A stretch of 64,000 nucleotides of DNA. It comes from a virus. The position numbers and the translations under genes are program-made. Below are positions 44,868 through 59,928 of the stretch, piece by piece. Location of the stretch: positions 1 to 64,000 of IMG/VR virus record IMGVR_UViG_3300009610_000003; one strand, 5' to 3'. Each line of letters begins with the position of its first letter. The first letter of the stretch is position 1. A model generated the notes under the pieces. It was given only the letters and a program-made list of their open reading frames with translations, had not been told where the DNA came from and did not search any database.

Positions 44868-45317
44868 ATGCCCACCTTTGCGCACGATCCCTCCCGCGTT
44901 CACCCGCCTGCGAGCGCGGGCGGCTACCCGTCAATCGCCGAGGAAGAGCGGACATCGCGGGCAGTACCGGCACCACGCGAGGTCGTCCCGGAACCGCCAC
45001 GTACCCGCTCTGTCTACGACGACAAGATAACCCTTGTGTCCATCGCCTTGGGCGAAAGCGGGATGCCGCACCGCGTCGTGTTCGTGAACACGCATCGCCA
45101 GTACCGGGGACAAGGCCGGGCCACCAACATGCTCAACACCGCACTGGGCGATATGGACGCTGATGGCCGACCGTCCGAAATCTATGTCCGAAATGTTGAG
45201 CCCGACTGCGATGTCGGTCGCCTCGTCGCGTTCTTTGCACGTTTTGGCTACGGGCAAGCAGACCCCGACCCGGATGAACCCGACACGCCCCACCTCACCC
45301 GCCCCGCTGGTGGTTGA
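44868..45317 (+). CDS. GNAT-family acetyltransferase (start uncertain)
   Basis: YRGQGRA acetyl-CoA motif and LVAFFARFGY. Confidence 0.65.
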   Translation: MPTFAHDPSRVHPPASAGGYPSIAEEERTSRAVPAPREVVPEPPRTRSVYDDKITLVSIALGESGMPHRVVFVNTHRQYRGQGRATNMLNTALGDMDADGRPSEIYVRNVEPDCDVGRLVAFFARFGYGQADPDPDEPDTPHLTRPAGG

Positions 45318-50032: not shown

Positions 50033-50505
50033 TTTTCCAGTCGGTCAAGAATGAGGTTCACCCGCTCGTCGCCCAGCGCGGCCAGCCGGGTGACAATCGT
50101 CTGTAGGCTGCTCAGCACCGTGTCACCGCCATCGAACCTGTCGGTGGCGTACTGGTGGTGAGCGTCATACTTGTCGCAGCGGCGGCAATAGCGGGTGAGC
50201 CGGGCATTCACATCGGTGGCCACGGCCTTGCATTTCTGGCACTGGTAGGGACGGCGCTTGACCTCGGCCCGGAATGCCAGTTCCTCGGCCCGCGCCCGTT
50301 CCTGTCGCATGGCGAGAGCGGTCGGGGATGGCGAGTGGGTCGGAGATGGCGAGTATGGGGCCGGGGGCGCATAAGTCACGAAACCGATGTAGTCGTGATA
50401 ATTGAACTCGGCCAGCGTGATGCCCCGTTCCTTCAGATACCGGTAGACGTTCGCGTCAAGCTTCGTATCGACATCGATCACCATGGCTTCTTGGCCTCTC
50501 CCCAA
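50029..50505 (-). CDS. hypothetical zinc-finger protein
   Basis: CQKC...CRRC. Confidence 0.5.
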   Translation of the reverse strand: MGRGQEAMVIDVDTKLDANVYRYLKERGITLAEFNYHDYIGFVTYAPPAPYSPSPTHSPSPTALAMRQERARAEELAFRAEVKRRPYQCQKCKAVATDVNARLTRYCRRCDKYDAHHQYATDRFDGGDTVLSSLQTIVTRLAALGDERVNLILDRLEK

Positions 50506-52457
50506 GTGGGTCCTACCTCGAAATCGACAATCGTCGGGACGACGAGCGGCGTCGTTTCGACCATGATCGCCTGTGCCTTCTCGGCGACCGCCCGGTCGGC
50601 GGTGCTGATGTCAAGCTCGTCGTGCAGTTGCAGCATCGGCACGATGCCTTCGCGCCAGCAGGCGAGCATCGCCAGCTTGGTCTGGCGCGCGGCTGAGCCC
50701 TGAATGAGGTTGTTCAGGCTCTTGCGGGTGTCGGCCCGCCGCAGCATCGTCTTGGCCCATGGGTGGTCGGGGTTCTCGCGCCGCTTCATGGCCTCGTCGT
50801 AGCTGCACGGGCTCATCTTGTGCCCCTGCGCCTCGGCGCTCATGCGCGTGTCGAAATCGACATAGCCGCCCTCCCAGCGCGGGTAGTGCATCCGGGCACC
50901 GTCGATCAGCCTGATGTAGCCGCGCTCGTTGGCGGCCCGCTTGCATTCGTCCTCTAGGCTTTTGATGAACGGCAGGCGGTTGTGATAGTCGCGCAGCAAC
51001 TCTTCAGCTTCGGCGAGGCTCAGGCCAAGCTCTTCCGCCAGCGCCCGCTTGCCTTTGCCGTAGGTCATCGACAGGTTCAAAATCTTGGCGATGGCGCGGG
51101 GCCGGTCAACCATCTCGGCGACCATCTGGTGATAGTCGGTGCGCGGGTCGTCCAGATACCGCTGCACTGCCGCCTCAGCGCCCCGTGCACCGACCTTGGA
51201 CGCGAAGTGCACGGTCAGCCGTGGCTCCTGCTGGGAATAGTCAAGCGCCACCCAGCGCTCGCCCTCTTCCGGGAGGAAGCAGCTTCTGATCGCCACGCCG
51301 ATGTCGTCCTTGTCAGGGGAAGGCATCTGCTGAAGCGGTGGTTCCGAATAGCTGAACCGGTGCGAGCGTGTCCCCCCGGACGTGTCGCGATACTGGTGTA
51401 TCTCGGCGTGGATGCGGCCCCGGTATTCGTAGCTCAGCAGGAAGTTCTCAAGGAACTTCGACTTGGCTTCCTCGTACTTTTCAGCGACCGCACAGGCGCG
51501 CGGCAGCGGGTGGTCGTGCTTCTCCATCCAGTCTTTGGTGAAGCTCGCCTGTGAGGTCTTCTGGGTGCGCGGGAAGGCGATATGCTCGCGGCTGAACCAT
51601 TCTTCCATCTGCTTGGGCGAGCGCACCTCTTTCATGCTGGCGGCACGCTTCAGTTCCAGCAGCGAGCCGACCTCGGCCAGTGCCGCGTCGCGCTTGGCGG
51701 TGAACGCCTTCATGGTCTGTTCGATGCGGGGCATGTCCAGCCGGATGCCGCGCCGCCGCATGGCGGTCACCATGGGCAACAACGCCATCTCGGTGTCGTA
51801 GGCCCCGGTCAGGTTTTGCGCGTGCAACAGCGGTGCCGTGTGCTGCCACAGCGCCCATGTCTGCTCAGCGTCGGCGATGGCGTAGGGGGCCGCGAACTTG
51901 GCTTCCACGGCCCAGATGGCCTGAGCCGCCTTGGCGGGGTCGTAGCCCTCGCTTTCCACGGCCTGCGCCAGCAGCTTCTTGTCCTTGCCGGGAAGGCCGA
52001 TGCGATGGCAGCAATCGTCCAGCGCGTAGCTGAATTCGTTCTCGTCGGTCAACACACAGGCGGCGAGCGTGTCATCGATCTGCGCGCCGGTCAGGTCGGC
52101 CCCGCTCGTCGTCAGCCAGCCATAGTCGTAGGCGGCGTTGTGGAAGACCAGCCGGGTGGCGCTCTTGGCGATGTCGGTCACCCACTGCATGACCTCTGTC
52201 CGCGCGAAATGGTTGCCGTCAGCATGGTAGATCGGCGCATAGCCGCTGGTGCCCTCGGCGGCCCAGCTTACGCCGCAAATGTAACCTTGGCCGAAAGCCC
52301 AGCCGGGGCCTTTGCCATGCTCAAGACCCATGTCGCGGGTTTCGCAGTCAAGCACCACCACCGGATGCTGCCGCAGGTCGGGCAGTTCCGATGGTGGTTT
52401 CCAGTCGCTGTCGGGGCGGAACAAGCCAAGCTGCCCTTGTTTGAACCTCTTGGCCAC
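50478..52457 (-). CDS. polA: family A DNA polymerase with 3'-5' exonuclease
   Basis: LDCET, FHNAAYD, DYSQQEPR (motif A), AKILNLSMTYG (motif B), LHDEL (motif C). Confidence 0.95.
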   Translation of the reverse strand: MAKRFKQGQLGLFRPDSDWKPPSELPDLRQHPVVVLDCETRDMGLEHGKGPGWAFGQGYICGVSWAAEGTSGYAPIYHADGNHFARTEVMQWVTDIAKSATRLVFHNAAYDYGWLTTSGADLTGAQIDDTLAACVLTDENEFSYALDDCCHRIGLPGKDKKLLAQAVESEGYDPAKAAQAIWAVEAKFAAPYAIADAEQTWALWQHTAPLLHAQNLTGAYDTEMALLPMVTAMRRRGIRLDMPRIEQTMKAFTAKRDAALAEVGSLLELKRAASMKEVRSPKQMEEWFSREHIAFPRTQKTSQASFTKDWMEKHDHPLPRACAVAEKYEEAKSKFLENFLLSYEYRGRIHAEIHQYRDTSGGTRSHRFSYSEPPLQQMPSPDKDDIGVAIRSCFLPEEGERWVALDYSQQEPRLTVHFASKVGARGAEAAVQRYLDDPRTDYHQMVAEMVDRPRAIAKILNLSMTYGKGKRALAEELGLSLAEAEELLRDYHNRLPFIKSLEDECKRAANERGYIRLIDGARMHYPRWEGGYVDFDTRMSAEAQGHKMSPCSYDEAMKRRENPDHPWAKTMLRRADTRKSLNNLIQGSAARQTKLAMLACWREGIVPMLQLHDELDISTADRAVAEKAQAIMVETTPLVVPTIVDFEVGPTWGEAKKPW

Positions 52458-52460
52458 GGG

Positions 52461-52964
52461 TCAGATGCCCCGGTTCAGTTCCTGCCGCACGGCGCGCACG
52501 GCGTCGTCCATGCCCGTGTCGGCGTCGCTGGCGGCAGCGTGGTGGCCGCCGTTCTCGGGCGTGCCGCCATGACCGTTGGCAGCAACCTCTTTCGTCCGCT
52601 TGCCATAGATGTCGTGAACCCGCTGCATGGCTTCCTCGCGGGTGCAGCCCCAGCCCACGGCGAGCGCGGCGTAAAGCTCCTGCCCGTCATAGGGCCGCAC
52701 GGGCTTGCGCAGGCGGTCTGCGACGCAGCGGGCGTAACCGGCGATGTCGTCCCAGTGATCTTCGTGGCTGGGGTCGCCTGCCAGTATGCGGGCCATCTTG
52801 TGGGCGATCATATAGAGCGCGTGCCGCTGGGGGTCGGGCAGGATGGGCCAGTTGCGCTCGCGCTGCATGGCCCGCAGCATCTCCCACGTCGCCCGTGAAT
52901 TCTCGTTGAATTCGCCATGCACGGGGGCGCGCTCGCTCATCACCTTGGCGGTCTTGTCCATCAT
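52461..52964 (-). CDS. DUF6378-like all-alpha protein (possible nucleotide pyrophosphatase)
   Basis: ER...HG.F...KMARIL.GD....DHW.DIAGYA. Confidence 0.7.
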   Translation of the reverse strand: MMDKTAKVMSERAPVHGEFNENSRATWEMLRAMQRERNWPILPDPQRHALYMIAHKMARILAGDPSHEDHWDDIAGYARCVADRLRKPVRPYDGQELYAALAVGWGCTREEAMQRVHDIYGKRTKEVAANGHGGTPENGGHHAAASDADTGMDDAVRAVRQELNRGI

Positions 52965-53545
52965 GCGCTTTCCTTCAGGTTGTAGCCCACGGCCCCGGTG
53001 CGCCGGTTCATCTGGTACAGCACGTCTTCGTGCCTTGCGTCGGCGCGCTCAATGAACTCATTCACGGCGTTGTAATCGTCGCGGGTCAATGTTGCCGCGA
53101 GCTTCAGGGCGGCCTGTCGCGTGCGCATGACGATGGCGATGGCGTACATATTGCCCATCAGCCGTTCCACCATGCCGAACTGCATTATTTCCAAGAGGTC
53201 GCACACCTTGATGCGGGCGATCAGGTTTGGATGCAGCGGCGGCAGTTGCGCCAGCTTCAGCTTGTCCATCTCCCGGCGTTCCAGCCGCTCAACGATGCTC
53301 TTGAGGTCGGGATTTTCCGCTTTCACGGGGAACGGGATGTCGCCGACGCCAAGCTCGCCCGCGTCGTGCAGGCGGATATAGCGTTCGACCGGGCCGCCCA
53401 GATCGCCGAAGATGGCCGCGTAGATGCAGGCCATCTGCCAGCTATGCTCAGCCACCGTCTGGGTCTGGATGGTAGGCCACGTGTGATACCTTCTGGTGCG
53501 GCCCGCGAAATACAGGTCGTCGGTCACGAAATCGGTTTGGGTCAT
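52961..53545 (-). CDS. HD-domain 5'-deoxynucleotidase (YfbR-like)
   Basis: RRYH...VAEHS...LHD..E...GDIP.PVK...K..D. Confidence 0.85.
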   Translation of the reverse strand: MTQTDFVTDDLYFAGRTRRYHTWPTIQTQTVAEHSWQMACIYAAIFGDLGGPVERYIRLHDAGELGVGDIPFPVKAENPDLKSIVERLERREMDKLKLAQLPPLHPNLIARIKVCDLLEIMQFGMVERLMGNMYAIAIVMRTRQAALKLAATLTRDDYNAVNEFIERADARHEDVLYQMNRRTGAVGYNLKESA

Positions 53546-53850
53546 GTAGCGTCCTCGTCAACAATGCCTCTTCCGACCTTGCTTTTACGATCCTTTTTCG
53601 TTCCGGGCAAACCTTCGGGCTCAGGTTCGTGGTCTTCCAGCCGCTCGCGCGCCTCGCGCCGCTGCCGGGGTGGCAGTTCCTTGGCCGCCGACGCAGCCCT
53701 CGTCGCCGCCGCCTGACTGACGCGGGCCAGCACTTCGACCTGACCGGTGCCGCTGCACGACAGGCACGGGTTGCCCGATACCGGGTCGGTGCCCTCGCCA
53801 GCGCACGCCTCGCAGTCGCGTACCTTCTTGATCGTCCTGAAAATGCTCAT
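53542..53850 (-). CDS. DnaJ-type zinc-finger small protein
   Basis: CEACAGEG...CLSCSGTG. Confidence 0.6.
   Translation of the reverse strand: MSIFRTIKKVRDCEACAGEGTDPVSGNPCLSCSGTGQVEVLARVSQAAATRAASAAKELPPRQRREARERLEDHEPEPEGLPGTKKDRKSKVGRGIVDEDAT
53582..53610 (-). promoter_or_regulatory. AAGGATCGTA-class promoter, intragenic
   Basis: TTGCCC-ggaacgaaaAAGGATCG-TAAAAG; ends 37 nt before the HD gene start. Confidence 0.6.
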
Positions 53851-54146
53851 TTCCATGTCTCCTTGACGCGCCAATGTTGAAGCAGGCGGATTTTCCCTGA
53901 CGAATTCATGCCCGCCAGTTTGACGGGGTCATCAAGGAACCCCTTGTCATGCAGCGGCTTCATGCGCGGCGAGACAGACCACTTGTCGATGTTCATCTCG
54001 GCAGCGATCTGAATTGAAGTCATGTAGCGTGGCCAGCATGTCCGCATGAAATTAAAGACATCCTCTTCCAATTTCGATTTCCCAACAATGCTTGCGGCCA
54101 GATGTGAAGTGTAGGGGTCGCCCGGTCGGGCTGATGCACTTGTCAT
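53847..54146 (-). CDS. winged helix-turn-helix protein
   Basis: AR..DP.TS..AA...T..QIA......SVSPR...L...G. Confidence 0.65.
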   Translation of the reverse strand: MTSASARPGDPYTSHLAASIVGKSKLEEDVFNFMRTCWPRYMTSIQIAAEMNIDKWSVSPRMKPLHDKGFLDDPVKLAGMNSSGKIRLLQHWRVKETWK

Positions 54147-55129
54147 TTCTTCATCCTCCGTTTCAGCCACGCTGCCGTAGCAATTCGCCAGTCAGGCGCG
54201 GCAATTGAATGTGCCCAGTTCAGTGCTTCTTCCCAGTCATGCTCTTTGCGCAGTTTGTTCGCGAGGAACATGGGCCGCGCCGTGTTGGTCAGGAATTCAT
54301 TTCGCAGCTTCGGCACCTCGTCGGGGTCGGCGACATAGGCCCTGACATCGGCGTCGAATGTGTAGGGGTCGGTCACCAGCGGCAGCGTGCCGGGGTAGGC
54401 CGGATGACGGGACATCGCGTCAAGGCTCACCAGATGCTTGGCGCTGTCGTACATATGCCAGTTCCAAGAGAACTGGGTCATCGTGCCCATGCCGACGCCG
54501 ATGCGCGCGGCGAGGTATTCCTGCAAGATTGAGAAATGCACGACATTCGCGCCGTAGCAGCCCCAGACGATATCGTTGCTGCGGCAGGTGACGCCAAGAT
54601 CAAGCGCGTTTTTCTGAATGCGCAGGTAAATCTGGGTGTTGCAGGGGCGATCCTTTAAGCCAACGACACCCAGATCACATGGCGCGTCCCACATCTGGAT
54701 GACGGCTTGGCGGCTGGTCGGGTCGTCCTGCAAAATGCTAATTACTTTTTTCAACTGGTCTAGCGCCGTGTTGGTGTAGGCATTTGGGTTCTCGAAATGG
54801 CGACGCCACCGGTAGCCGTAGGCCCCGTGCATCTGTCCGTCTTCCTCGGCGAACCGGGCCGAGAAGTCGCCGACGAACTGGTCAAGCCATGTCGCGTCGT
54901 TCTGCCCGGCGAGCATCCACAGCGCTTCGTGTAAGTGAAATATAGGGTTTGCATCCCTGACCGGGTCGAACAGCACCCGCTGCATCGGTTGTGCATAGTT
55001 GGTGACCACCGGCCACGGCACGACGCGCACGTTACCCGCCCGCGACGGCTCAGGCACGCCGTACATATCAATCAGGGTGATTGCCTTCGGCCATGCGTCG
55101 TTGACGTTGGTCGCGTGTATCGTCCTCAT
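54143..55129 (-). CDS. thymidylate synthase-fold enzyme, probable dUMP hydroxymethylase
   Basis: RDANP.FHL.E.LWML.G, HGAYG.RWR, PCN and RSND..WG..GAN motifs (Asn indicates dUMP specificity); start MRTIHA. Confidence 0.8.
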   Translation of the reverse strand: MRTIHATNVNDAWPKAITLIDMYGVPEPSRAGNVRVVPWPVVTNYAQPMQRVLFDPVRDANPIFHLHEALWMLAGQNDATWLDQFVGDFSARFAEEDGQMHGAYGYRWRRHFENPNAYTNTALDQLKKVISILQDDPTSRQAVIQMWDAPCDLGVVGLKDRPCNTQIYLRIQKNALDLGVTCRSNDIVWGCYGANVVHFSILQEYLAARIGVGMGTMTQFSWNWHMYDSAKHLVSLDAMSRHPAYPGTLPLVTDPYTFDADVRAYVADPDEVPKLRNEFLTNTARPMFLANKLRKEHDWEEALNWAHSIAAPDWRIATAAWLKRRMKK

Positions 55130-55323
55130 ATCAGCCCTTCTCTCATCGCCAGCCATTCCGGCAGCGTCACGATGACGATGTCGCTGCCCCTTTTCCCTTC
55201 GATGTCGCACTGGCTCTTGGGTAACCAGACGGCATCTTTTTCCTCGCCGCTGTCGGACACCAGAATAGCCATGGGGGTTTCGTGGTGCAGGTGCAGTGTC
55301 AGGTCGATTGGCTCGCGGCTCAT
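55126..55323 (-). CDS. small hypothetical protein
   Basis: VWLPKSQ...LPEWLA..EGL; ATGA overlaps. Confidence 0.65.
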   Translation of the reverse strand: MSREPIDLTLHLHHETPMAILVSDSGEEKDAVWLPKSQCDIEGKRGSDIVIVTLPEWLAMREGLI

Positions 55324-55883
55324 AGTCCCAGCAACTCCATGGTCTTGGTCATCGCCTCGGCGCGTGGCAGCATGAACACGTTCAGGCCAATTTTCCGGTT
55401 GTTCCGGGTCGTGACGATCAGCGACCGGTGCTTGTTCCGGGTGTGAACCTCGTTGAACGGGTTGGGGCTTTGCGCTGCCTCGCGGCGCGCGTAGATCGAC
55501 GCCAGACACTCGTCTATCGTGGTGGCCAGCAGGATGACGGTGAGGCCCCCGGCGGCGTCCAGCTTGCGCAGGCGGGGTTTCCCCCAGCTACCCACCAGCA
55601 GCCCTTCAAACAGCACGTTCTGGCCCCGCAGGGCCTCGGCGACGATCAACGCTTCCTGATCGTTGGCCGCCCCCGGCCACGTCTGCGCGTCGCAGCCACC
55701 GGTCGCCTCATCGTAGCGCCCGATGACCGTCAGCTTGGCCTTGTCCCAGATGTAGGCCCCGACCTTGCGCCGTGGCCCGAGCGGGAGCTTGAGCGCCTTG
55801 TCCATGCCCCCGGCCCGTGCCATCGCCTCGCGGGCGATGAAGCTCTTGCCGGAACCCGACGCACCTCTCAACAGCACAATCAT
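55320..55883 (-). CDS. P-loop kinase, candidate 5-hmdU DNA kinase
   Basis: RGASGSGKS, G.Y....GGCD, VLFEG, C...I..RR; gene context. Confidence 0.7.
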   Translation of the reverse strand: MIVLLRGASGSGKSFIAREAMARAGGMDKALKLPLGPRRKVGAYIWDKAKLTVIGRYDEATGGCDAQTWPGAANDQEALIVAEALRGQNVLFEGLLVGSWGKPRLRKLDAAGGLTVILLATTIDECLASIYARREAAQSPNPFNEVHTRNKHRSLIVTTRNNRKIGLNVFMLPRAEAMTKTMELLGL

Positions 55884-56320
55884 GGGCGATCCATTAGATA
55901 CTGCTTAAAGTATTCGTTGGCGAGCGCGCCCTTCCGAACCTGCTTCACGGCCTCGATTGCCTCGGCTCCGGTCAGGCCCCGCAGCCGCATCAGGGCCAAT
56001 GCCGCCACCAACCCCGAGCGGTTGCGTCCGCCCCAGCAATGCACCAGCGCGCAGCCGCCCTCCCGGATGTGGCGTTCGACACGCACGGCGGCATACTCGG
56101 CGACGATTGCCGCTTCGCCCGTGACCTTGCCGTCTGGCATGGTCTTCTGCTCGTACCAGCCCACCAGTTCGCGCACCCGCGCATCGGGCGTGTGCCACAG
56201 GTTCATCACGCCGGTAATGTCATGGTCGCCAATCAGGTAACGCACTTCGTTATCGGTCAAGGTGTGGGTTCGCGCCGACAGGTACATCCGGCCCGGCATC
56301 AACTCGTAGACCCGCATCAT
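55880..56320 (-). CDS. dual-specificity/PTP-like CX5R phosphatase
   Basis: PDG acid loop and LVHCWGGRNRS active-site motif; ATGA coupled on both sides. Confidence 0.9.
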   Translation of the reverse strand: MMRVYELMPGRMYLSARTHTLTDNEVRYLIGDHDITGVMNLWHTPDARVRELVGWYEQKTMPDGKVTGEAAIVAEYAAVRVERHIREGGCALVHCWGGRNRSGLVAALALMRLRGLTGAEAIEAVKQVRKGALANEYFKQYLMDRP

Positions 56321-57318
56321 GCCGACCATTCCTTCGGATGCGCAAAGTCAGTGGTGGAAAGGTAGTTGAACCGCAGGTCTGACCACGTGTAGCCATGGTC
56401 GGCCAGCGATGCCGCCGCGTCTTTGCGCGGCTTGTCCCAGCCCATCATTTCGCCGAGATGCTTGAACGGGAACAGCTTCTTGCGCGCCTGCCAGATGGCC
56501 GATGTGTATTCCCACTCGTCCTCGGCCCGCCGGGCATATCTCAGTTCGCTGTCGTGGCTGCGGCCCGGATAGAACTTCTTGCTTTCCCAGCTTTCGCGGT
56601 ATTCGCACAGCAGCACCTGAAGCTGGAACATATCGATCTTGATGCCGTGGTCGTCGTCCAGCAGCGCCAGCGCGTCTTCGCAGCTTTCGTGCGCCAGCTT
56701 CAGGGCTTCCTTGGAATTGTCCCTGTTGCCCAGCCCCCGGTCGGGGAACAGGTAGCCGAGCGTGTGCCTCGGTGACCACGCGGCGAAGGGCCGGATGTCG
56801 GGCGTGCGCACCGGCAGGTCGTGGAAGCGCCGCAGGTATTCGATGAGCTTGATGGCCGCGTACCTGCCCACCGTCTCGATCTTCAGCACGTGTTCCCACG
56901 CGATTTCGAACCCCTCTTCCGGGGTGGCCGCGTCAAAGCACCGTTCGCACAGCTTGTCGTAGATGCCGATGAAGTGCTGGCAGTCGCGCAGGTATTCATA
57001 CATCTGGTCCGGGCGGCGCGCGGCGCGGCGTTCGATGCGCGTGGTGATGTGGCCTCGGGCAAAGGCGGTGTCCAGCCAGTGGCGCATCCACTGAGGGCTT
57101 TCCATGCACTTGCTGAAGGGCAGGCCGCGCCACAGCACCTCGCCGTAGGGCACGTTGTAGACGCCGATGTAGCAGCACCCCCGCCATATCGCTTCCTCGT
57201 CGCTAGCGGCGTCCTTGGCCATCTCGAATACCGTGGGCAACTGCGGGTCGGGGCCGCCGCTCGCAAGCTCCCACTTGCAGAACTCGGCGAAGAATTTCCG
57301 GTGTTCCTCGGTGTTCAT
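56317..57318 (-). CDS. amino acid:DNA transferase-like protein (aGPT-Pplase2 clade)
   Basis: HhH-like I..VGRY.....IEYL and LCEY......YPG motifs; context with kinase and TS-fold enzyme; ATGA start at 57318. Confidence 0.65.
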   Translation of the reverse strand: MNTEEHRKFFAEFCKWELASGGPDPQLPTVFEMAKDAASDEEAIWRGCCYIGVYNVPYGEVLWRGLPFSKCMESPQWMRHWLDTAFARGHITTRIERRAARRPDQMYEYLRDCQHFIGIYDKLCERCFDAATPEEGFEIAWEHVLKIETVGRYAAIKLIEYLRRFHDLPVRTPDIRPFAAWSPRHTLGYLFPDRGLGNRDNSKEALKLAHESCEDALALLDDDHGIKIDMFQLQVLLCEYRESWESKKFYPGRSHDSELRYARRAEDEWEYTSAIWQARKKLFPFKHLGEMMGWDKPRKDAAASLADHGYTWSDLRFNYLSTTDFAHPKEWSA

Positions 57319-58244
57319 TTCGTGAACCATGACAACTCCAATCCAAAACGCTTGCCCTGACCCTCGGTGCATTTGTCGCAGGGTTTCTGCGCCCCCCGGT
57401 CACGCGCGATCAGGTTGGCGCGCACCTCGTCGTAGGCGTCCCACAGGTCGGGAAGCGACCGTTCCGGGAAGCTCCCGATGATGTGGGCATCTCCCCAGTC
57501 ATCGCAGCAAAAGGGCACCGAGCCGTCGAACCACATCGGCATTTCTCTGAACGGCCTGACGCACATCCGGGCCAGCGGCGCAGCTACGGGTCGGACGTTT
57601 GGATAAATCTTGGATGCCCGGCCCGGCCCTACGTCAGCAAATCCACCTTGGTTGTGGTAGTGCAGGATGACGTTCTCGCGCGGCACGCGGCCTAGCTCGC
57701 TCTTGTAGGTGGTGGCGTCCTTGATGATGAGCGCCCGCCAGTTGGGGCCTCGGTAGCCGTAGGGGCTCATGGCCTCGTCGCCGAAGAACAGGTCGGCGGC
57801 ACCCTTGAACAGCACCGTGAACTCGCGCAGGCGCTTGGGTGTGTAGCAGTCGAGCAGGAAGCAGTTGACACCCTCGGCCTGCGCTTCGGCGACCCATTCC
57901 CTAAACAGCGGCAGGCCCAGCACGTTGACCAGATCGCCGTTGGTGCTGACGAGGAACTGTGCCTGCGGCAACAGCTTGCGGGCGATGCGGATGAACCTGA
58001 TGAACTGGGGGTGCATCGTCGGCTCGCCACGGTTGGCGATTTCAATTCTGACCTTCGGTTTCCAATCTCTCACGGCCCGACAATAGTCGATCCATAAGTC
58101 TTCGTGCATGAACTGGTAGGGGCCTTCGGCCCATGTCTGGTTGCGCAAGCCGCAGAAGACGCATCGCATGGTGCAGCCGCGCACGAATTCCGGCTTCAGC
58201 GTGTACGGCAGATGCCGCCCGCCTGTATTTCCCATCGAAGTCAC
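57315..58244 (-). CDS. radical SAM enzyme with SPASM/twitch-like C-terminal domain
   Basis: CTMRCVFC, GEP, TNG; C..PF......DG.V..CC.D...IG...PC..C. Confidence 0.9.
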   Translation of the reverse strand: MTSMGNTGGRHLPYTLKPEFVRGCTMRCVFCGLRNQTWAEGPYQFMHEDLWIDYCRAVRDWKPKVRIEIANRGEPTMHPQFIRFIRIARKLLPQAQFLVSTNGDLVNVLGLPLFREWVAEAQAEGVNCFLLDCYTPKRLREFTVLFKGAADLFFGDEAMSPYGYRGPNWRALIIKDATTYKSELGRVPRENVILHYHNQGGFADVGPGRASKIYPNVRPVAAPLARMCVRPFREMPMWFDGSVPFCCDDWGDAHIIGSFPERSLPDLWDAYDEVRANLIARDRGAQKPCDKCTEGQGKRFGLELSWFTK

Positions 58245-58392
58245 TCCCCTTCGAAGAAAACGGCGGCCCAGTTTTTAAGCTGAGCCGCCGCCCGACAGCG
58301 GAACGTGCCGACCAAGGCGCGTCTACCCGCTGTCTTAACCACCTTTCTCAACCCCAAGAAGCCAACCACGGCCTTCTGGGGGAACCGGGTGG

Positions 58393-58788: not shown

Positions 58789-59928
58789 TTATTTGGTGAC
58801 CTCGTAGCCCTTGTGAACGACGCCCAGTTTCTCGTCGCCTCGGCCATGGCTGGTGCGCCACCAGCGCTTTGCCGGGCACTTCTGGCAATGATACCTGTCC
58901 GGGGTCACCGGTTCCCACTCATGCGTGCAGGCGGGTATGCGGCGGCTTTGGCACCAGTGCCCGCGCACCGAGTGGTAGCGGTGGTGCCTGTCGGTGTGTC
59001 CGCCCTCGGTGACGCGCCGGTAGCTTTCCTGCGGGCTCAGGTGCAACTTGACGCTGTTGTGGCTGACCAGCACCTGACTGTGCCCCTTGAGCAATATGCG
59101 CTTGTGCGGCTCGTCAGTGACCATCAGCACGTGCTTCGTGGGCCGCGTCAGCAAGAGCAGCATGATGATGATCTGCTTCATGCTGCCAGCGGAAGAGCGC
59201 AGGGTTCGCAGCTTGTCCACGACCGTCATCTTGTCGAACGGCGGCTTGCTGTAAAATTCGAAGCTGTGGCTGCGGCAAATCTCGTTGGCCACATGCGTGT
59301 TCCACCACTTCCCCTCAAGACCGGGGTCGCCATAGATCATCTTCCGCAGCATCAGCCGCGACGTGTTCAGTTCCTGCGCCAGTTCCAGTTCCCGTTCGAA
59401 CGTCATCGGGCGGTGCAAGTGGTAGATCAGCGGGGTGACGCCAACATCGTCCAGACCGAGTGCCGTGGTGGTTTTCCGCCGCGCCTCGGACGCCGAGTAG
59501 ACCTTGCCATGATCGAAGAAGTAGCCCACCCGCGTGTCGGCGGTCGGGTCGTCGGGGTTCATGCCGGGGATGACCTCGGCGTAGGCGCGGAAATCCATTT
59601 CCAGCCACGTAAGCTGGTGCGGCGGTCGGGCAAATTCATGCTGTTCCAGCATCAGCGGCGCGGCCTTATTGACCAGTTCGCCGACCAGACGACTGGCCGG
59701 TGCATCCAGCACAAAGCGATGCGCCATGCGCAGGCTGAGCGGCGAGATGCCGCTGTAGTTCAGCGCCTTCTGGTTGGCCAGCAGCTTGTCGATCAGGTTG
59801 GGCTGCGGCTTGGGCTTCCTGACGAAGCCCCGCAGCAAGCCGTCGATGTCTTTCTGGGTGCCGCCGTGCGCCTGCTTGAGGGCAGTGCGCACGGTCTTTG
59901 AGGGGGTGCCAGCGGGGAAGGTGGTCAT
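58789..59928 (-). CDS. hypothetical protein with H.VRGHW motif and Zn-ribbon insert
   Basis: HSVRGHW...C.H.W...CQKC...W...H.RGD..LG. Confidence 0.7.
   Translation of the reverse strand: MTTFPAGTPSKTVRTALKQAHGGTQKDIDGLLRGFVRKPKPQPNLIDKLLANQKALNYSGISPLSLRMAHRFVLDAPASRLVGELVNKAAPLMLEQHEFARPPHQLTWLEMDFRAYAEVIPGMNPDDPTADTRVGYFFDHGKVYSASEARRKTTTALGLDDVGVTPLIYHLHRPMTFERELELAQELNTSRLMLRKMIYGDPGLEGKWWNTHVANEICRSHSFEFYSKPPFDKMTVVDKLRTLRSSAGSMKQIIIMLLLLTRPTKHVLMVTDEPHKRILLKGHSQVLVSHNSVKLHLSPQESYRRVTEGGHTDRHHRYHSVRGHWCQSRRIPACTHEWEPVTPDRYHCQKCPAKRWWRTSHGRGDEKLGVVHKGYEVTK

Follow-up and report, generated by a model that had tools for sequence, protein, structure and literature searches.

Thymidine hypermodifications shield phage DNA from restriction and CRISPR nucleases and are a source of enzymes for DNA labelling. 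To our knowledge, all the solved pathways attach amino acids or amines to the base, which are then tailored by an enzyme dependent on pyridoxal phosphate (PLP), flavin or acetyl-CoA, or by an SPL-like radical S-adenosylmethionine (radical SAM) enzyme. Here we describe a cluster of ten genes on the minus strand (58244 to 52461), followed by the DNA polymerase gene PolA, in the uncultured phage record IMGVR_UViG_3300009610_000003. The stretch analysed, hereafter the window, comprises positions 1 to 64,000 of this record, which is complete at 82,172 bp with direct terminal repeats (G+C content of about 62%). The cluster is very probably a post-replicative thymidine hypermodification operon acting on 5-hydroxymethyl-2'-deoxyuridine (5-hmdU), and its predicted product is probably an undescribed base. 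Transferase (of the ADDT fold), CX5R phosphatase and 5-hmdU DNA kinase make up the core of the uncharacterised class of operons to which it belongs.

The closest described systems are those of the phages M6, PaMx11 and ViI. The M6 pathway to 5-(2-aminoethyl)-2'-deoxyuridine (5-NedU) comprises the ADDT gp51, the PLP enzyme gp52, the radical SAM isomerase gp53, the kinase gp54, gp55 and gp58. That of PaMx11, leading to 5-acetylaminomethyl-2'-deoxyuridine (5-AcNmdU), comprises the PUGT/ADDT enzyme gp46, the FAD lyase gp47, the acetyltransferase gp48, the 5-HMUDK gp49, gp50 and the thymidylate synthase (TS) homologue gp51. The main text of PMC8989533 describes M6 gp54 and PaMx11 gp49 as 5-hmdU DNA kinases and M6 gp51 and PaMx11 gp46 as glycine:DNA transferases, and its Table 1 gives amino acids or amines as the donors of all characterised ADDT enzymes. 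In ViI the serine:DNA transferase gp247 joins its donor via the hydroxyl, a precedent for an ether-linked base made by an ADDT enzyme (5-(2-aminoethoxy)methyl-2'-deoxyuridine, 5-NeOmdU; PMC8989533). The 5-HMUDK family co-associates with a TS-superfamily dUMP hydroxymethyltransferase, according to the text of PMC5889632.

Our system is kindred to these and works like them up to the transfer step. With PaMx11 it shares the gene order kinase, TS, HD, PolA, a transferase with the predicted PUGT fold and nucleophilic cysteine, and recognisable homologues of the kinase (31% identity), of gp50 (34%, here called HMUDK_hel), of TS (38%) and of PolA (33%). With M6 it shares TS (39%), the kinase (27%) and HMUDK_hel (33%), HD and PolA genes following TS, and a radical SAM enzyme in the tailoring set. 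It differs from PaMx11 in having neither a match to the FAD lyase (DAO) nor an above-cut-off acetyltransferase among the families searched, in possessing a phosphatase and a BtrN-like radical SAM enzyme, and in the position of HMUDK_hel, which lies 9 kb away, whereas in PaMx11 it stands beside the kinase. From M6 it differs in that the radical SAM proteins are unrelated, that no PLP enzyme is matched among the families searched and that the transferase has no BLASTP similarity to gp51. Unlike in ViI, where serine is added and then decarboxylated by a PLP enzyme, a phosphatase and a radical SAM enzyme are present. The main text of PMC8989533 uses the word "phosphatase" once, in a methods sense, and "SPASM" never, its supplementary metavirome clusters lying outside this search; nor did the literature searched, supplements excluded, yield a match joining SPASM, BtrN or an inositol synthase with phage DNA hypermodification. 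In these texts the phosphatase, the BtrN-like enzyme and the inositol synthase of the relatives (see below) occur in no described thymidine hypermodification pathway.

The genes of the cluster, with PolA and the distant HMUDK_hel, are as follows:

57315..58244, minus strand: radical SAM protein with a SPASM domain, BtrN-like twitch type, 309 aa (PF04055, 7.6e-10; PF13186, 2e-5)
56317..57318, minus strand: DNA transferase of predicted ADDT/aGPT-Pplase2 fold, 333 aa (PF18724, 1.6e-5, 25.2 bits)
55880..56320, minus strand: CX5R phosphatase (DSP/PTP fold) with an HCX5RS loop, 146 aa (PF00782, 5.2e-10, 39.7 bits)
55320..55883, minus strand: P-loop kinase, relative of 5-hmdU DNA kinases, 187 aa (phrog_800, 2.7e-8)
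55126..55323, minus strand: 65-aa open reading frame (ORF), ATGA-coupled on both sides (ORF call and overlaps)
54143..55129, minus strand: TS-fold enzyme, probable dUMP hydroxymethylase, 328 aa (PF00303, 6.5e-24; phrog_5131, 1.6e-89)
53847..54146, minus strand: 99-aa ORF, ATGA-coupled (ORF call)
53542..53850, minus strand: 102-aa ORF with two CxxCxGxG-type motifs (DnaJ_CXXCXGXG, 2e-4, below cut-off)
52961..53545, minus strand: HD-domain 5'-deoxynucleotidase-like protein, 194 aa (PF12917, YfbR-like, 2.3e-8)
52461..52964, minus strand: DUF6378 protein, 167 aa (PF19905, 7.3e-8)
50478..52457, minus strand: family A DNA polymerase (PolA), 659 aa, end of the chain (PF00476, 6.6e-44)
64783-65583 of the genome, just past the window end, minus strand: HMUDK_hel (aGPT-Pplase1; PF18723, 119 bits, 9e-34)

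A sequence-only reading of the window had predicted a thymidine hypermodification operon of the 5-hmdU type, with a tailoring set (radical SAM enzyme plus CX5R phosphatase) distinct from those of M6, ViI, PaMx11 and PhiW-14. Our comparisons bear this out: TS, kinase and transferase match characterised systems, and ORF, Pfam and PHROG scans recover the genes it named, all on the minus strand. The translational coupling that it had pointed out is likewise present, each of the nine gene junctions between the radical SAM gene and DUF6378 being an ATGA overlap, and PolA ending the chain. These overlaps place several starts at internal ATGs (ADDT 57318, phosphatase 56320, small ORF 55323, TS 55129, and the small ORFs at 54146 and 53850), in agreement with the beginnings of the homologues. 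Megablast of the cluster against phage records gave no close DNA-level relative. The order of the genes is kept in a 79-kb relative (L011) at protein identities of 40–74%, so that the gene set is more than a chance assembly.

The enzymes predicted to make and activate 5-hmdU are the most readily recognised. By BLASTP the TS-fold enzyme is 38.7% identical to M6 gp58 and 38.2% to PaMx11 gp51. Against the PDB sequences its best match is CMP 5-hydroxymethylase (2.6e-19), the best thymidylate synthase scoring 8.3e-14; the catalytic cysteine is aligned, and an Asn of the uracil type stands where CMP 5-hydroxymethylase has Asp. It is thus a probable dUMP hydroxymethylase, with 5-hmdUMP as the predicted product. 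The kinase, with an N-terminal Walker A motif (GxxGxGKS), is 30.7% identical to PaMx11 gp49 (E 1.9e-12) and 26.9% to M6 gp54 by BLASTP; the phrog_800 that it matches is the M6 gp54 family, annotated in PHROG as "terminase small subunit". These similarities support a relative of the 5-HMUDKs, for which phosphorylation of 5-hmdU in DNA is predicted. A match of the HMUDK Pfam model (PF18723) to 55320-55883, suggested earlier as a check, could not arise, because this model covers the helical domain, which is here a separate gene. That gene, HMUDK_hel, about 9 kb from the kinase and overlooked in the sequence-only reading, is 33% identical to M6 gp55 and 34% to PaMx11 gp50; its ORF spans 64729-66093 (minus strand) of the genome (L092:2530-3894), with about 170 low-complexity initial codons that are probably an untranslated over-extension. 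The HD protein is 26–27% identical to M6 gp59 and PaMx11 gp52, in a matching position, and PolA is 31–33% identical to its M6 and PaMx11 counterparts.

Core enzymes of the ADDT clade

BLASTP of the transferase found no similarity to M6 gp51 and gp55, and tblastn returned only matches of 25–29% identity to actinophage proteins annotated as "aGPT-Pplase2 domain". There was no match in a single-protein scan of viral contigs, and none beyond chance (E>0.6) with the ADDT profile against the PDB sequences. The other members of its clade that we scanned reach 39.1, 34.8, 36.2 and up to 47.8 bits with PF18724, except for two that fall below the gathering cut-off of 26.2 bits (21.8 and 22.1). In an alignment of 32 clade members (A3), C238 in an LCE motif is invariant, as are R152 and Y153, and K157 is nearly so. 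An AlphaFold2 (AF2) model built on this alignment (predicted local distance difference test score, pLDDT, of 95.8) had only the all-helical PaMx11 gp46/PUGT (8z2n, 8z2m) as PDB fold matches at E<=1e-3 (7.7e-4, TM 0.53–0.60), the next, non-significant ones being HhH-type glycosylases and DUF2419. In the published description of PUGT, Cys247 attacks C6 as the proposed nucleophile, and Trp146 and Lys150 hold the glycine (PMC11472151); cysteine mutants of M6 gp51 and ViI gp247 are reported as inactive in the main text of PMC8989533. A profile alignment by hhalign places C238 on Cys247, Y153 on Trp146 and K157 on Lys150; of the latter two PUGT residues only Lys150 is kept, and an invariant Arg-Tyr pair occupies the position of the donor-contacting Trp146. 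Three points count against this placement: the PF18724 score of our transferase (25.2 bits) lies below the gathering cut-off, the hhalign match is itself weak (E 0.072), and in it Gln and Val stand opposite the PUGT metal ligands Glu243 and Thr244. Predicted fold and catalytic cysteine support membership with ADDT/PUGT, as the earlier reading had suggested, and from the model and the alignments we conclude that the transferase probably has the PUGT fold and nucleophile but an altered donor pocket.

Widespread as it is, the ADDT clade is known to date from phage and metagenome DNA alone, a single scan of one genome per prokaryote species having returned no relative. In a profile search of 1.84 billion representative proteins, 844 matched at E<=1e-3 and 240 (clusters at 50% identity) at E<=1e-30. 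To survey its genomic contexts, we scanned with the ADDT alignment and obtained 42 viral loci, which with the present genome make 43 loci that were classified using hidden Markov models (HMMs). A CX5R phosphatase lies within 2 kb of ADDT in 39 of these and a kinase is found in 31, an inositol-3-phosphate synthase in 17 and a BtrN-like enzyme in 11. TS is present in 23 of the 43 and a TET/JBP dioxygenase in five, and neither source of the hydroxymethyl group occurs in the fetched stretch of 15. For 31 loci, those in which 2.3 kb or more precede ADDT, the combination of synthase and radical SAM enzyme could be judged, unlike for the other 12: 11 have the synthase only, 11 neither, seven the radical SAM enzyme only and two both. 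Therefore, ADDT, phosphatase and kinase form the core, with synthase and radical SAM enzyme as independent add-ons; about two thirds of the synthase-bearing loci are without the radical SAM enzyme.

The synthase matches PF01658 (2.2e-36) and, over its full length, TIGR03450 (1e-139 to 1e-148). In L011, the closest of the full-length relatives, as well as in L094 and L014/L102, its gene lies directly upstream of that for the radical SAM enzyme; in L094 and L102 its reading frame extends into the beginning of the latter. These operons share with ours the core and the BtrN-like enzyme, and differ in the synthase, which our phage lacks. Six further loci (L175-L179 and L181; ADDT 57–59% identical) encode synthase, ADDT, phosphatase, kinase, TS, HD and PolA without a radical SAM gene, and the fetched stretches of the nearest ADDT relatives, L173 and L174 (80–81%), end just upstream of ADDT. 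A 377-aa ORF between the radical SAM gene and ADDT in L015 was considered as a hidden synthase and rejected, having no similarity to it and no family. In synthase-less loci of the TET/JBP type, FkbM-family methyltransferases and ParB_N proteins are encoded around the ADDT-phosphatase pair (L197:6201-6995, L212:5330-8628, L208:5641-6651 and L194:5392-6021).

The phosphatase passes its Pfam cut-off (PF00782, 39.7 against 33.5 bits). Across 29 relatives, with identities as low as 22%, there is no change at D63, C95, G98, N100, R101 or N135, positions that include the catalytic Asp, Cys and Arg (D63, C95 and R101), the Asp being the general acid upstream of the loop. Among solved proteins the nearest are small protein tyrosine phosphatases (PTPs) of archaea and bacteria, DUSP28 and PTPMT1. 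Inositol phosphates are familiar substrates of CX5R enzymes such as the PTP-like phytases, PTEN and the Siw14-type enzymes. In two loci, L184 (L184:6986-8497) and L185, ADDT and phosphatase are joined in a 503-aa ADDT-DSPc fusion. Such fusions recur: 15 of the best 150 ADDT matches are at least 477 aa long, and of the ten of these that were scanned seven are ADDT-DSPc proteins (P0045, P0047, P0052, P0058, P0069, P0099 and P0182). A separate arrangement is seen in P0159, which has two ADDT domains in tandem. The phosphatase is thus no oddity of this phage but a constant neighbour of this ADDT clade, adjoining the transferase in nearly all its loci.

Its substrate could be 5-phosphomethyl-dU (5-PmdU) itself, a point against a role on the donor. 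The phosphatase would then act on DNA-bound 5-phosphomethyl- or 5-pyrophosphomethyl-dU, reverting unused sites to 5-hmdU or trimming a pyrophosphate, and would thereby determine how many thymines are modified, or which. The ATGA overlaps with both the kinase and the transferase genes agree with this alternative, as do the occurrence of the phosphatase in loci without inositol synthase and the invariant Asn-Arg pair of its P-loop; a similar pair is present in the cysteine-phosphatase RNA 5'-triphosphatases, which act on nucleic-acid ends. The fusion of a transferase to a destroyer of its own substrate is hard to rationalise, however, and the characterised pathways, as set out in the main text of PMC8989533, need no such enzyme. 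We consider this alternative unlikely and favour a phosphatase that acts on the donor.

The BtrN-like radical SAM enzyme

The radical SAM protein carries a CX3CX2C box at C24, C28 and C31; C28 and C31 are kept throughout the 24-sequence family alignment (A1), and C24 in all of its full-length rows. Five C-terminal cysteines (C228, C246, C247, C289 and C292) are also invariant, and the SPASM Pfam model is passed (25.2 against 21.5 bits). We rejected a two-cluster SPASM domain with seven C-terminal cysteines, since only five are invariant; the pattern fits the single-cluster domain of BtrN. In a search of the PDB the family profile finds BtrN at E 1.9e-17, with core and C-terminal domain both covered by the match; NifB comes next at 1.2e-3. 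C228, C246, C289 and C292 align with the four cysteines of the BtrN C-terminal domain, which we take to be its auxiliary-cluster ligands. Foldseek with the AF2 model (pLDDT 80.2; predicted template-modelling score, pTM, 0.85) again finds BtrN first (PDB 4m7t; 2.8e-11, TMt 0.78), followed by SpeY, DesII and anSME. No SPL-type entry is among the PDB fold matches listed for this model. The substrates of BtrN, the 2-deoxy-scyllo-inosamine dehydrogenase of the butirosin pathway, and of SpeY are aminocyclitols, in which a secondary alcohol is oxidised; SpeY, DesII and anSME are dehydrogenases and their relatives, acting on cyclitols, sugars or Ser/Cys.

The comparison with BtrN has its limits. Our protein shares the radical SAM core, the C-terminal twitch-type domain and the four aligned cysteines, but it is only about 16% identical, has an extra stretch at about residues 140–225 and comes from a phage DNA modification operon rather than an antibiotic cluster. 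The low identity weighs against a transfer of function, as do the lower pLDDT (55–69) of model residues 180–230 and the versatility of twitch/SPASM enzymes, which also perform epimerisations, dehydrations and cross-links. On sequence profile and modelled fold the protein is closest to BtrN, a twitch cyclitol dehydrogenase, and oxidation of an alcohol is its predicted reaction. An isomerase-like tailoring of an amino-acid adduct is therefore not our preferred reading. BLASTP against M6 gp53 gives at best E 0.31 over eight residues of the Cys box (309 vs 480 aa), and a gp53-type isomerase is rejected for want of detectable similarity beyond CX3CX2C.

The family is small: a search of 5.8 billion proteins yielded 40 members at E<=1e-3 among 1057 candidates. 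By tblastn over 50,697 phage records only one remote match was found, in an unannotated faecal contig, and the top matches of a BFVD fold search with the model were radical SAM proteins of uncultured phages only. A pattern scan of IMG/VR with the family alignment gave 124 relatives among 133 matched stretches, of which the best 80 loci were kept. By tblastn, a TS homologue lies within 9 kb in 53 of the 80; by clustering, the commonest neighbours are TAGT-like genes (53 loci), HMUDK_hel (48) and TS (47), each cluster being named from one representative. Typically the genes run HMUDK_hel, TAGT-like, radical SAM, TS, PolA, HD. With custom HMMs, at least one of TS, TET/JBP, ADDT, TAGT-like or HMUDK_hel was detected in 75 of the 80 viral loci and in 67 of 80 metagenome loci, half of the latter being shorter than 8 kb. 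These HMMs were built from the first-scan loci, so that the counts on L011-L090 are partly circular, yet they agree with the independent clustering and tblastn. Therefore, the radical SAM family is a dedicated companion of hydroxymethyl-pyrimidine DNA chemistry, its partner transferase being either glycosyltransferase-like or of the ADDT type: eight loci (L011-L016, L018 and L020) have the architecture of the window, with the radical SAM gene adjoining ADDT, and in most others it adjoins a TAGT-like gene. By analogy, the TAGT-like neighbourhood fits an enzyme acting on an appended sugar-like group.

The module of HMUDK_hel, TAGT-like, BtrN-like radical SAM, TS, PolA and HD genes is widespread in Pam3-like contigs (L021-L090 and L107-L172; e.g., L041:7000-11000), and no P-loop kinase was recognised among the ORFs scanned of these loci. 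In L101 (L101:6996-8879) a TET/JBP dioxygenase gene lies directly upstream of a 41%-identical BtrN-like gene, in a locus without ADDT or phosphatase. A sub-lineage comprising L012 (L012:11145-12509), L096, L099 and L100 has a second radical SAM gene (454 aa; weak Radical_SAM and DUF1848 matches) after the radical SAM-ADDT-phosphatase set, with no TS in the fetched stretch.

The same contexts admit a different substrate. The BtrN-like enzyme might oxidise 5-hmdU in DNA to 5-formyl-dU, in the manner in which anSME converts Ser/Cys to formylglycine, as a branch independent of the kinase. The radical SAM loci have in common a source of the hydroxymethyl group, TS or TET/JBP being present in 60 of the 80 viral ones, along with a variable transferase; the direct succession of dioxygenase and BtrN-like gene in L101, where ADDT is absent, and the presence of anSME among the fold matches point the same way. 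Yet the radical SAM gene adjoins the transferase in all eight ADDT-type loci of the first scan and a TAGT-like gene in most of the others, and the best matches, BtrN and SpeY, act on secondary alcohols of cyclitols. We therefore hold oxidation of the bare hydroxymethyl group to be improbable and prefer an appended group as the target.

It is also conceivable that the radical SAM enzyme and the phosphatase lie outside base modification altogether, as nucleotide-pool or host-takeover genes lodged in the replication module, phage replication modules being rich in unrelated small genes. Adjacency that is kept down to about 30% identity, together with the fusions and the translational coupling, renders this highly improbable.

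Predicted pathway and donor

In the pathway that we favour, the TS-fold enzyme would make 5-hmdUMP, the HD nucleotidase and the DUF6378 protein would bias the nucleotide pool, and PolA would incorporate 5-hmdU (step 1). The P-loop kinase, with the separate HMUDK_hel, would convert 5-hmdU in DNA to 5-PmdU (step 2), and the cysteine of the transferase would attack C6, expel the phosphate and add a nucleophile (step 3). Being modelled on homologous enzymes that have been tested, these three steps are highly probable. The nucleophile (step 4) would not be an amino acid but a phosphorylated small molecule rich in hydroxyls, namely inositol 3-phosphate in the relatives with an in-operon synthase, and for this phage either a host-supplied compound or another phospho-polyol. 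The CX5R phosphatase would strip the donor phosphate before or after transfer (step 5), and the BtrN-like enzyme would oxidise the attached group, turning one of its hydroxyls into a carbonyl (step 6); its counterparts in the TAGT-type branch, the larger one, would act on a sugar. Steps 4 to 6, drawn from genomic context, are tentative, and we put them somewhat below an even footing. The pathway taken as a whole, ending in an O-linked base derived from a polyol or cyclitol, we regard as evenly poised. More narrowly, an ether-linked phospho-polyol or phospho-cyclitol, dephosphorylated by the CX5R enzyme and then oxidised to a keto-cyclitol (inosose-type) thymine, is a possible but rather doubtful product, which bar the oxidation would be shared with about 240 clusters.

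Three observations argue for a phosphorylated hydroxyl-rich donor: the phosphatase is near-constant (39 of the 43 loci) and sometimes fused to the transferase; a synthase whose sole product is a cyclitol phosphate occurs in 17 of the 43; and the donor pocket of the transferase appears changed, with an invariant Arg. Because the synthase lies within the operons of relatives, it points to a polyol rather than to the amino-acid-type donor assumed in the sequence-only reading.

An amino acid or amine might nonetheless be added as in M6, ViI, PaMx11 and PhiW-14, with the radical SAM enzyme rearranging or trimming the adduct. By one such route it would replace the flavin lyase, taking glycinyl-T to aminomethyl-dU, and the phosphatase would edit or limit the kinase product. 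The donors listed for the characterised ADDT enzymes are in keeping with this, as is the lack of an inositol synthase in our genome, and in PMC13228596 a radical SAM enzyme is reported to replace an FAD oxidase in the chemically parallel tRNA step from cmnm5U to nm5U. Set against these are a radical SAM protein unrelated to M6 gp53 and closest to a cyclitol dehydrogenase, the loss of the glycine-binding Trp146 of PUGT, and the near-constant phosphatase, its fusion to the transferase and the frequent synthase, none of which has a role in an amino-acid route. We give this alternative little credence beside the polyol or cyclitol donor. The earlier claim that no PLP or flavin enzyme is present stands for the families PALP, DAO, DegT and Aminotran_1_2, which have no match in the whole 82-kb genome; other PLP and flavin families were not searched.

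The polyol or cyclitol reading has its own difficulties, the donor being its weakest link. Neither PF01658 nor the L011 synthase protein has a synthase match in the complete 82-kb genome, so that inositol is a clue from the relatives and not a shown property of this phage. The synthase is lacking in 18 of the 31 judgeable loci, and since all four combinations of synthase and radical SAM enzyme exist, the oxidase need not act on inositol. The locus counts themselves are not deduplicated, the 43 loci holding 36 distinct ADDT sequences and the one described here. Finally, with DegT and Aminotran_1_2 absent there is no such aminotransferase to use a keto product, which would stay as it is or pass to host enzymes.

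If the narrower, keto-cyclitol version is right, its product would be the first DNA base to bear a cyclitol, and neither a phosphatase step in DNA hypermodification nor a radical SAM dehydrogenase that acts on DNA would have a precedent. If the pathway as a whole is right, DNA base chemistry would be extended to polyols and cyclitols, and the radical SAM family would gain a testable role; an in vitro assay exists already in the form of 5-hmdU DNA with kinase, transferase and candidate donors. The constant extra enzyme of the clade is the phosphatase, and the optional extras are the inositol synthase and the radical SAM enzyme resembling a cyclitol dehydrogenase. What is new here is a synthase-less, radical-SAM-bearing member from a complete genome, the independent variation of synthase and radical SAM enzyme around a fixed core with recurrent ADDT-phosphatase fusions, and the structural placement of the transferase with PUGT by its model.

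Flanking genes and minor reading frames

Among the smaller genes of the cluster, the 65-aa ORF (55126..55323) has a longer 127-aa reading that matches no family. The 99-aa ORF (53847..54146) has no match in the Pfam or PHROG scans, and its earlier label of winged helix-turn-helix (wHTH) is not confirmed as a family; the same holds for the "Zn finger" label on 53542..53850, for which the only match is the sub-cut-off DnaJ_CXXCXGXG (2e-4). Elsewhere in the 82-kb genome, Acetyltransf_1 reaches at best 14.9 bits against a cut-off of 20.7, at 45081-45251 (plus strand), about 10 kb from the operon, and the TAGT-like model PF20691 has no match.

Upstream of the radical SAM gene lies a gap of 148 bp (58245-58392), the place in which relatives carry the inositol synthase. 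On the minus strand we noticed by eye a GC-rich inverted repeat followed by a T-run in this gap; the terminator scan made no call. The replication module near the cluster is of the Pam3/M6 type, with Pam3 gp33-like and gp34-like proteins, an AEP primase, SSB and UvrD. Between UvrD and the modification operon, a minus-strand gene (58789-59928) encodes a 379-aa protein that matches no family, has a C-terminus rich in Cys and His and is 41% identical to its counterpart in L011; the 102-aa ORF (53542..53850) is likewise 41% identical to its L011 counterpart.

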